Source: a phage. From it: a DNA stretch of 64,000 nt. The stretch lies in the sequence record PZ154897.1, one strand, 5' to 3'. The position numbers and the translations under genes are program-made. This document shows positions 15,708-19,986 of the stretch, piece by piece. Under the pieces are notes generated by a model. The model searched no databases and was not told where the DNA came from. It worked only from the letters and a program-made list of their open reading frames with translations. Numbering within the stretch: the first letter of the stretch is position 1; each line of letters begins with the position of its first letter.

Positions 15708-16736
<1,029 letters not shown>

Positions 16737-17046: not shown

Positions 17047-17424
17047 CTTTTTGAAAGTTTTTCGCAAAAGTTCAATGATTTCATCTACATTGTTTTCGTC
17101 TACAATGCAGTGAATTTTTGTTACGCCAGAAACCTTGTCTTCTATTTCATCTTCTTCAGAAGTCGGTTCTTTATACTCGCGGAAACAATGAAATTCGTCT
17201 TCGCAAATTTCTAAAAGTCTATCTTTGAGGTAAAAATGCTTTCCATTTGCGCATTCAATGTGTTTTACTGCTTTATATCCATTAGCGACGGAAACTTCTT
17301 TAACTTCAAACCATCCGCCATTATCTCGAATAGCTTTAACTATTGATGAATTAGAACGTGGGCTATAATTAATAAATGTATCAATAAGTCTTGGAACAAG
17401 TTCATATTTTCTACCAGTATACAT
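17044..17424 (-). CDS. hypothetical protein (126 aa)
   Basis: ORF in array. Confidence 0.45.
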   Translation of the reverse strand: MYTGRKYELVPRLIDTFINYSPRSNSSIVKAIRDNGGWFEVKEVSVANGYKAVKHIECANGKHFYLKDRLLEICEDEFHCFREYKEPTSEEDEIEDKVSGVTKIHCIVDENNVDEIIELLRKTFKK

Positions 17425-17696: not shown

Positions 17697-18647
17697 GTTA
17701 TTTTCCTCTTTAATCATCATCAGCAGTATTGCCGATAGTTGTATAGTACCACAGTATGCTTTGGGGTCCGTGTCATCAGCACTAGATGAACTGCCAGAGC
17801 TTGAGCTCATAAAATCATCTTCAGTTTTTGTTTTGAAGTCATCAACATTGAATGCATCCAAATCATCAGCAACTTTATCAGCTTTCTTAGCGGCAGTTGC
17901 TGCGGCACCACCCATAGCAGCAGTTCCCATAACTTGACTGAACTTAGTGCTCAGTTCTTCAAACGATTTGAATTTATCTTTAGAAGTCATTTCAGAAAGG
18001 TCAACCATTTGTTCGAACAGTTCTTTCTGGAAAGATTCATCATCAATGTTTGGAATCGCAGATTGATTCAGGAATTTAGATTCGTCGTAGTTACTAAAAC
18101 CAGAAACTTGTTTAACTTTCAGTACAAAGTTAGCACCTTCCCACGGACAAGTTACATCAACAGGAGTTTCACCCATTTCAACATCAACTGCAATCATTGC
18201 ATTGATTTTATCCCAGATTTTCTTACCGAAACGATATTTAAATACTTTACCTTCATTTTCTGGAGCAGCTGGGTCTTTTACAACAAGAATGTTAGCCCAG
18301 TAAGAAGTTTTACGTTTAACAAGACCGTACTCTTTATTGTCAGTGTTATACAAATCATTTTTACTGATGTACTGACATACTGGACAAGAATCGTAATCAC
18401 CGTAGGTAGATGAGCATGTTTCGATATACCATTTACCATTTTTCTTGAAACCGTGATTTACAAGAAGTGCGAATGGTGCTTGTTCATCATTTTTAGACGG
18501 AAGAAAACGAATTACTGCTTGACCGTTACCCGCATTATCGAGTTTCAGTTTCCACTCGCCTTTATCTTCAGAAGAAAAACCACCTTTATTTCCAGCCAGT
18601 TTAGCCATTTGTGCAGCGAGTTCAGCAGTAGATTTACGTTTAAACAT
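17469..18647 (-). CDS. 32: single-stranded DNA-binding protein gp32; frame lacks a stop at the T4 position and continues to 17469 (392 aa)
   Basis: residues 1-294 match T4 gp32 through ...SSSSADDTD; the last 8 codons and stop of T4 (LDDLLNDL*) are absent and replaced by a promoter-like repeat. Confidence 0.85.
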
Positions 18648-18700
18648 TTTTATTTCCTTTTTTAATTTAATTAACAGTTGGTGCTATGACACTTTACCTC
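18648..18700 (-). promoter_or_regulatory. gene 32 translational operator / AU-rich leader
   Basis: minus strand ...UUAAUUAAAUUAAAAAAGGAAAUAAAAAUG, the classic gp32 autoregulatory leader. Confidence 0.65.
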
Positions 18701-19331
18701 ATAGCTGGCATAATTCGCAATACTCTGGGTCTTCGAGAGGTATCCAACCTGAGTTGAAATACTTTACCATCGATTTAGCAGTTGTATCAGTTATATTTAT
18801 ATTACCTTTAACTCTTCGCCATCCAGGAGTTTTACCGTACAGATTAGAGGATAATAATAACACATAATTCTCGTAAGCAATATGAGATAATTTCCAAGAC
18901 TCTATATTAGCTCGTGATGTTTTCCAAGGTCTAAAATCGTCACGGTTCATATAATTAGCCAATCTCATATGCTCTCTAACTTCCGGGTCTTTGGCTGGAT
19001 GAGTTTCACCACTCACACCAAATCCGCCGCCAGCATATACCAGATTAAAATAGTCTGGATTATCTCTGGCATTTACTTCAAGTTGGTATTTTCGCTCTGC
19101 TTCAATAACATCCAAATCATCATCAATTTGAATTATTTTAACGCTCGGTTTTTGAAGCATTACCGCATTTAAAAATCTTTTTTGTTTGCACGAGCTCCAG
19201 TATTCCTTTCCGGAAGAGTCATATATTATTCCATTCTCAAATGAGCAATTTAATTTACTGCCGATATAGTAGTACGGCGGAGTCTTATTTTTGACACGGT
19301 CTTCAAATGTAAACCAATATACTATATTCAT
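18699..19331 (-). CDS. segG: GIY-YIG homing endonuclease, SegG-like (210 aa)
   Basis: N-terminal IVYWF...YYYIGSK GIY-YIG motif; between genes 59 and 32 as T4 segG. Confidence 0.65.
   Translation of the reverse strand: MNIVYWFTFEDRVKNKTPPYYYIGSKLNCSFENGIIYDSSGKEYWSSCKQKRFLNAVMLQKPSVKIIQIDDDLDVIEAERKYQLEVNARDNPDYFNLVYAGGGFGVSGETHPAKDPEVREHMRLANYMNRDDFRPWKTSRANIESWKLSHIAYENYVLLLSSNLYGKTPGWRRVKGNINITDTTAKSMVKYFNSGWIPLEDPEYCELCQL
18794..18801 (-). promoter_or_regulatory. candidate late promoter TATAAATA about 150 nt upstream of gene 32
   Basis: exact TATAAATA on minus strand inside segG 3' end. Confidence 0.35.
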
Positions 19332-19332
19332 A

Positions 19333-19986
19333 TCAATACTTACAAGATTTCACAGTTTCAATGAAAACACTTTTAGCTTTCTGTGAATCAATATTTAAAA
19401 TTTTTCTATAAGCTTTTAACTTTATAGAATAATTATTCCAGACTAAATTATCAGTCTGTTCATCATGTTTATCGATTATATTTAAAAACGAATCAAGCAA
19501 GATAAACGTCTCAAACGAAATTATATTCGATTGAAGTAGTTTAAAAATATAACTTGATTGAACTTTTGGATTATACTCAAAGATTTCTTTAAAAGCAGAA
19601 ACTTCAACTTTTTTACTAAAATAATAAATGTTGCGAATATCTTCTTCAAACTTAAATTTAATTTGCTTTAAGCGTCCGATATATTCACGATAAAACACAA
19701 GTGCATCAGCGTCAGAGATGTCACCAATCCAAGCATCTTGGTTAGCAACAAGATTGCTTATAAAGATTAAGGCAAGTTCCTTTAATTTATATTTTTCTGA
19801 TAGCTTCTGGAAAAAATACTTATCCCTTCGCTTTTGATAAGCGGCATCAGACACCCGCATGCACCAATTATACTTAATTACATCATACTTTCCATTCATA
19901 TGTTGTTTTATCATTAAGTATAATTTATAAACTGATTTACCATCAATGTATCTTTCACCACCAGCAGGCATGCGGAGTTTAATCAT
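19333..19986 (-). CDS. 59: helicase loader gp59 (217 aa)
   Basis: begins MIKLRMPAGGERYIDGKSVYKLYLMIKQHMNGKYD; matches T4 gp59. Confidence 0.95.
   Translation of the reverse strand: MIKLRMPAGGERYIDGKSVYKLYLMIKQHMNGKYDVIKYNWCMRVSDAAYQKRRDKYFFQKLSEKYKLKELALIFISNLVANQDAWIGDISDADALVFYREYIGRLKQIKFKFEEDIRNIYYFSKKVEVSAFKEIFEYNPKVQSSYIFKLLQSNIISFETFILLDSFLNIIDKHDEQTDNLVWNNYSIKLKAYRKILNIDSQKAKSVFIETVKSCKY

Follow-up and report, generated by a model that had tools for sequence, protein, structure and literature searches.

The 210-aa open reading frame (ORF) at 18699..19331 on the minus strand of the phage sequence PZ154897.1 is very probably the free-standing homing endonuclease gene segG of the T4-type phages (GIY-YIG family), located in a Tequatrovirus where segG normally resides, between genes 59 and 32; as part of the same highly probable reading, the altered 3' end of the neighboring gene 32 represents an independent deletion. 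The window (the whole stretch of 64,000 nucleotides that was analysed) belongs to a T4-like phage of the genus Tequatrovirus; its best 24-kb match in the phage collection, phage Aplg8, shows 94.9% identity over 92% of the query. At the sequence level, the window appears as a distinct mosaic member of this genus. On the minus strand, the gene order is rnh, dsbA, 33, 59, segG, 32, frd.2, frd.1, frd, and a single base separates the TGA stop codon of gene 59 from the segG ATG. The features of this region are as follows.

18699..19331, minus strand: segG coding sequence, 210 codons plus TGA (ORF list, T4/SH-2 identity, PHROG 7504)
19017..19331, minus strand: predicted N-terminal catalytic domain of SegG, about aa 1-105, divergent GIY-YIG fold (conserved Y5, Y22-I23-G24, E79, N96)
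18702..18995, minus strand: C-terminal helical domain of SegG, about aa 113-210, presumed DNA-binding/target-recognition module
18801..18794, minus strand: TATAAATA, the gene 32 late-promoter consensus within segG, beginning 154 nt upstream of the gene 32 ATG
18683..18710, minus strand: gene 32 mRNA pseudoknot, nucleation site of the gp32 translational operator (folding, T4 identity)
18648..18682, minus strand: A/U-rich unstructured part of the gene 32 operator (UUAAA/UAAA repeats) and Shine-Dalgarno sequence (from sequence; function as in T4, PMC535899)
17469..18647, minus strand: gene 32, encoding a 392-aa gp32-Frd.3 fusion (Pfam gp32, E 9e-66, residues 40-240; Phage_FRD3, residues 318-392)
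17764..17765, minus strand: junction of a 106-bp deletion with 2-bp CC microhomology (alignments to T4 and SH-2)
19333..19986, minus strand: gene 59, helicase loader (Pfam T4_Gp59_N/T4_Gp59_C, E 1e-53)

Two further segments of the window depart from T4. An 81-aa ORF between frd and frd.1 (16491..16736, minus strand) is present also in SH-2, phiC600P9, and other phages but corresponds to an alignment gap in T4, and the frd.2 region (17200..17400) shows up to 52 mismatches per 100 nt with T4 while being near-identical to SH-2 and phiC600P9. Both are typical mosaic blocks.

The protein encoded by the 18699..19331 ORF is identical to T4 SegG (NP_049855) at 209 of 210 amino acids and 622 of 633 nucleotides, with equal length, and matches orf66 of Shigella phage SH-2 at all 210 residues. 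The window gene differs from T4 at 11 nucleotide positions and from SH-2 at 10; 20 of these 21 differences are synonymous, which indicates clear purifying selection on the segG frame, and the remaining one accounts for the only amino acid replacement (L57V). The search against PHROG profiles identifies PHROG 7504, "homing endonuclease", over the entire protein (residues 1-210 of 210, E 1.9e-133). The exact protein is found in 67 contigs of public collections, e.g., in Escherichia phage HY01 where it is annotated as "homing endonuclease", and the T4 reference annotation describes SegG, encoded by a 633-bp gene between 59 and 32, as "site-specific DNA endonuclease; GIY-YIG family". The sequence-only reading had described this ORF as a SegG-like GIY-YIG endonuclease and had pointed to an alignment with T4 SegG as a check; that description holds given the alignment result, the same synteny, and the annotation of an identical protein elsewhere. 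Full-length identity, position and orientation between genes 59 and 32, and the gene 32 signals embedded in the frame all agree with T4, so that the ORF is the segG orthologue rather than merely a SegG-like gene.

The distribution of segG is equally characteristic. The 633-bp gene is present at 95% identity or more, always full length, in 142 of the 50,697 phage records, in comparison to about 500-700 records that contain the flanking 59/32 region, a patchy distribution such as a mobile endonuclease gene would be expected to show. The single amino acid replacement among 21 differences, together with the 142 full-length copies, argues that this ORF is not a chance frame. In six segG-less phages (phiC600P9, vB_Eco-B1.1, GEP001, TB004, CrRp10, and Sfk20), the spacer between genes 59 and 32 is 99 bp long (...TAA TTGCTTATTATAAATAGATTATAATTATCTCACTGACCAGCTATGAGGTCATACATCGTCATAGCACC...) and harbors, exactly at the segG position, a T2-type pseudoknot and a separate copy of TATAAATA. 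Up to the pseudoknot, this spacer is replaced by segG in the window and in T4 alike. The pseudoknot of the segG-less phages has the form CUGACC...GGUCAUACAUC, i.e., CUGACC...GGUCA(UACAUC), and the segG-linked T4 type has the form UGCC...GGUA(AAGU), with compensating changes in the short stem (UGCC/GGUA vs UGACC/GGUCA). The linkage of the two pseudoknot types to the presence or absence of segG suggests that the right-hand boundary of the segG cassette lies inside the pseudoknot. Thus, some close relatives contain segG and others do not, the flanks are conserved, and the empty site is clean, as is the case for homing endonuclease genes.

The assignment of SegG to the GIY-YIG superfamily relies on the fold and the motifs. 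The N-terminus of the protein reads MNIVYWF, and the two motifs quoted in the initial annotation, IVYWF and YYYIGSK, are indeed located at residues 3-7 and 20-26, respectively, with the IVY of the GIY-YIG signature at residues 3-5. Profile methods do not recognize the domain: no Pfam (PF01541 and related) or NCBIfam family matches the SegG protein at E<=1, a profile of 26 homologues compared to PDB sequences yields only noise, and hhalign of SegG with I-TevI gives no match. A Foldseek search ranks I-TevI first, albeit with a non-significant E of 1.4, and the predicted GIY-YIG alpha/beta fold of the catalytic domain is the sole line of analysis that detects the relationship. According to the structural model, SegG would adopt a GIY-YIG fold in which a helix is added between the two motifs and YIG is followed by a hairpin. 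Compared to the catalytic domain of I-TevI (PDB 1LN0/1MK0), to which it shows about 15% identity that is undetectable by HMM/profile methods, SegG contains the additional helix at residues 10-15, which includes the invariant R12, and the insert after YIG forms a beta-hairpin. The only Pfam signal of a GIY-YIG domain in the family is a weak SegE_GIY-YIG match (E 0.035) in one distant member of the 26 homologues. The GIY-YIG assignment of the SegG family accordingly exposes a gap in Pfam and NCBIfam, the current profiles of which do not capture it.

Altogether, 29 SegG homologues were identified (33-99% identity), of which 26 were aligned. Conservation is concentrated in the N-terminal region of about 105 residues, where R12, P19, Y22, I23, G24, S25, K26, C29, Y44, S47, E79, N96, and A100 are invariant in the 26 sequences and Y5 is nearly so. 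Of the catalytic positions of the superfamily, the two Tyr (Y5 and Y22), the Glu (E79), and the Asn (N96) are thus conserved. The counterpart of the catalytic R27 of I-TevI is probably R52, which is found in the context KRF (KRW in I-TevI) although it is replaced in 6 of the 26 homologues; the alternative candidate, R12, is invariant but belongs to the insert, so that the identity of the catalytic arginine, R52 or R12, is ambiguous. In contrast to the N-terminal domain, the C-terminal halves of the homologues belong to several types that are not related to one another: some show signatures of NUMOD1, NUMOD3, or the I-TevI DNA-binding domain, others are Cys-rich or zinc finger-like; unrelated C-terminal halves are found in the distant family members P0014, P0016, P0017, P0020, P0021, P0023, P0026, P0028, and P0029. 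The conserved N-terminus combined with the variable C-terminus has the appearance of the modular build typical of GIY-YIG homing endonucleases, and the swapped C-terminal halves point to domain shuffling that would retarget the nuclease. In SegG itself, the C-terminal domain is predicted to be helical, with helix-turn-helix-like matches, and from this model a role in DNA binding can be inferred.

The 3' part of segG contains regulatory elements of the downstream gene. The sequence from TATAAATA through the end of the pseudoknot aligns with T4 base for base. The 28-nt pseudoknot UGCCAGCUAUGAGGUAAAGUGUCAUAGC occupies positions 18710..18683, and its first 12 nt are segG coding sequence that includes the stop codon TGA (18701..18699). 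Folding recovers the long stem of the pseudoknot (GCUAUGA/UCAUAGC), and the segG stop codon forms part of this stem. According to the literature on T4, segG (ORF 32.1) shares sequence with the 5' portion of the pseudoknot (Borjac-Natour et al. 2004, PMC535899) and houses both the middle and the late promoters of gene 32, as well as a region of RNase E processing (Edgell, Gibb and Belfort 2010, PMC2988022). The functional reading of TATAAATA and of the leader derives from the identity with this characterised T4 region: by this comparison, TATAAATA within segG would be the gene 32 late promoter, with the activity published for T4. The sequence-only reading had drawn attention to TATAAATA and to the overlap of the gene 32 leader with the 3' end of segG; both are present and T4-identical, in an arrangement that has already been published.

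As a stand-alone indication of a promoter, TATAAATA was discarded because this motif occurs 7 times in the AT-rich window compared to 9.9 occurrences expected by chance, i.e., without enrichment. An Rfam scan of positions 17300-20100 matches no family, and in particular no model matches the gene 32 pseudoknot; a generic sigma-70 promoter and terminator scan returns background counts only. The A/U-rich gp32 operator (18655..18680, minus strand) has one ATTA/UUAA unit fewer than that of T4 (AATTAAATTAAAAAAGG vs AATTAAATTAAATTAAAAAGG) and one more A than that of SH-2, ZJUN4, and the segG-less phages. These length differences could modestly change the autoregulation of gp32.

The embedded signals also raise the possibility that segG is an inactive remnant kept merely for the late and middle promoters of gene 32 and its part of the pseudoknot. 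Essential promoters inside the frame would favor retention even without nuclease activity (PMC2988022), and the failure of all profile HMMs to recognize the nuclease domain fits this scenario as well. Nevertheless, we consider it very improbable. The frame is intact, with the synonymous bias of substitutions extending along its whole length rather than only over the 3' end, all family-invariant residues are present, each of the 142 database copies is full length, and the protein is one conservative change at a variable position away from the biochemically active SegG of T4.

For T4 SegG, GIY-YIG endonuclease activity directed at gene 32 has been demonstrated (PMC2988022, PMC2330249). As summarized in later articles, it cleaves gene 32 of the segG-less phage T2 and is responsible for the SegG-dependent exclusion of T2 gene 32 markers (Liu et al. 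2003, via PMC2988022, PMC2330249). Given that L57V is a conservative substitution in a variable column, we infer that the window allele has the same endonuclease activity. The similarity to T4 SegG (ORF 32.1) extends to the position between genes 59 and 32 and to the identical embedded TATAAATA and pseudoknot region; the differences consist of L57V, the loss of one ATTA unit in the operator, and the adjacent gene 32 deletion with the Frd.3 fusion. The cleavage and insertion sites of SegG are reportedly 332 bp apart; assuming the same distance from the insertion site, the cut in gene 32 of the window would presumably fall at about 18360.

Other GIY-YIG endonucleases differ from SegG to varying extents. 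SegG is free-standing, unlike the intron-encoded I-TevI, and the cut lies hundreds of base pairs from the insertion site in the case of SegG but only about 23 bp away in the case of I-TevI. Parallels in genomic organization are found in SegA-F, especially segA and segE, which, like segG, are intergenic, share the orientation of their neighbors, are present or absent in related phages, contain promoters of downstream genes inside their ORFs, and cause marker exclusion (PMC2988022). Nevertheless, SegA-F show no significant sequence similarity to SegG, which also differs from them in targeting gene 32 and in the overlap of its cassette with a regulatory RNA pseudoknot.

Extrapolating from T4 work to the window phage, the following mechanism can be proposed. 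SegG would be made from the polycistronic message of the gene 59 region and, in a mixed infection, would cut gene 32 of a related phage that lacks segG. With the segG-containing genome as the template, recombinational repair would then replace the gene 32 markers of the recipient (marker exclusion) and sometimes copy segG itself. On insertion, the cassette would have displaced the ancestral spacer between genes 59 and 32 along with its late promoter; as a consequence, the segG frame would now include the late promoter of gene 32 and the 5' portion of the operator pseudoknot, an overlap that ties the retention of segG to the expression of an essential gene. The 3' alteration of gene 32 would be a separate matter, namely an allele with a 106-bp deletion whose circulation among tequatroviruses is unconnected to segG.

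This deletion is delineated by alignment to T4 and SH-2, relative to which the window lacks 106 bp at the junction 17764/17765, with a 2-bp CC microhomology. Gene 32 has thereby lost its stop codon, the 8 codons in front of it (LDDLLNDL), and its terminator hairpin (GGGGACCCTAGAGGTCCCC-T6); the -35 element of the frd.3 promoter is missing as well. The result is an in-frame fusion of 392 aa that consists of gp32 residues 1-294 (numbered as in the window protein), a 23-aa linker derived from the former frd.3 leader, and the 75 aa of Frd.3 (residues 318-392). The helix of T4 gp32 that binds Dda (residues 248-270; PMC11551737) is retained in the fusion. PHROG 1764 (391 positions, "unknown function") matches the fusion protein end to end and corresponds to the gp32-Frd.3 fusion. 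The exact 392-aa protein is absent from a collection of 15 billion proteins, and a literature search for a gp32-Frd.3 fusion retrieves only papers on plant FRD3.

A search with the junction sequence retrieves 10 database records, among which both IME537 records cover only half of the query, without the junction. The identical 106-bp junction is found in CrRp10 (2 records), phiC600P9 (2 records), B1.1, and GEP001. Given that these phages were isolated in France, China, and Poland, the allele is a circulating natural variant rather than an assembly quirk of a single genome. In TB004 (GGACCA/CCAAAG) and Sfk20 (GGACCT/ACAACAAGG), the junctions are shifted but located at nearly the same place, and the resulting frameshift yields a 311-aa gp32; this points to repeated loss of the terminator and of the C-terminal tip of gp32, by a hotspot mechanism or through selection. 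A 3-bp GAT indel in the frd.3 leader (17713..17715; GCTGATGATGATT vs GCTGATGATT) is polymorphic independently of the deletion: it occurs in the deletion-free ZJUN4 but not in the deletion phage CrRp10.

The sequence-only reading had considered the presence of segG next to a gene 32 with an altered 3' end to be suggestive of a link between the two. This suggestion is not borne out. All six database phages with this or a closely similar deletion (CrRp10, phiC600P9, vB_Eco-B1.1, GEP001, TB004, and Sfk20) lack segG, and the nearest segG-containing phages, SH-2, ZJUN4, and T4, have an intact gene 32 3' end; hence the deletion is independent of segG in cis, even though 0 of 6 does not amount to a significant negative association when the frequency of segG across the genus is only about 0.2-0.3. 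The deletion lies about 880 nt into gene 32, i.e., about 600 bp past the expected cut, the position of which follows from the reported 332-bp distance. Local alignment of the expected target region with the deleted segment gives a score of 18 compared to a shuffle mean of 17.2, i.e., no similarity.

One could still envisage that the deletion arose from imprecise repair after SegG had cut a secondary site close to the 3' end of gene 32, in cis or, during a mixed infection, in trans. The occurrence of the deletion in segG-less phages does not exclude such an origin because GIY-YIG enzymes tolerate degenerate sites and act in trans, and the at least two or three junction types (the 106-bp one in five phages, others in TB004 and Sfk20) hint at a recurrent event at one spot. 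However, the segment does not include the expected cut site some 600 bp away, its resemblance to the target stays at the shuffle level, and none of the six deletion phages carries segG. Furthermore, replication slippage is a possible route, since the 106 bp lost include a strong terminator hairpin with short GACC/CC repeats on either side. We therefore regard an origin of the deletion through SegG as extremely unlikely, and an independent deletion is the preferred reading.

A different question is how segG and the deletion allele came to be in the same genome, a combination for which the phage collection searched contains no record. Within the first 245 nt of gene 32 (sites 18404, 18414, 18423, and 18467), as in segG, the window agrees with the segG-containing phages SH-2 and ZJUN4 and, at these sites, with none of the six deletion phages. 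The stretch from 17430 to about 18160, with the junction and the GAT indel, matches phiC600P9, B1.1, and GEP001. These two SNP blocks imply a crossover between 17764 and 18404; the expected SegG cut (about 18360, if the distance of 332 bp is as reported) falls within this interval. It is conceivable, although we hold it to be somewhat unlikely, that the window is the product of segG homing, along with a co-converted 5' portion of gene 32, into a genome with the deletion allele or of recombination of the deletion allele into a segG-containing genome. Such an origin is compatible with the identification of segG as a homing endonuclease gene next to an independent deletion, given that it concerns history rather than function. 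In its favor are the match to SH-2/ZJUN4 on the 5' side and to the deletion phages on the 3' side, with the expected cut in the interval between them, and the absence of the combination from the databases. The SNP mosaic analysis yields, however, only a crossover interval and no clean co-conversion tract: SH-2 and phiC600P9 are near-identical over the 3' two thirds of gene 32, so that the tract boundaries are poorly defined, and T4, despite its segG, has the "segG-less" allele at each of the four diagnostic positions. Moreover, the region is finely mosaic, with private SNPs, as is usual in tequatroviruses, and ordinary recombination fits these data equally well.

With respect to segG itself, these results have little significance beyond a correct annotation, the identical protein having been deposited from other phages; the gene, its GIY-YIG nature, the gene 32 marker exclusion, and the embedded promoters and pseudoknot have all been known in T4 from work published between 1989 and 2010. 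The "rearranged gene 32" becomes uncoupled from segG, and the gp32-Frd.3 deletion allele stands as a separate and more curious feature. Slightly new is the linkage of segG to the deletion allele, for which this genome is the sole case in the collections searched. As a speculation that we consider unlikely, segG may hitch-hike the gp32(deltaC8)-Frd.3 allele into segG-less populations or, alternatively, the genome may record a homing event with a tract that ended in gene 32. If SegG-induced conversion extends about 600 bp past the cut, segG would drive an altered essential replication gene into segG-less populations; if true, either version would be an example from nature in which a selfish endonuclease carries along a structurally altered form of the very gene that it targets.
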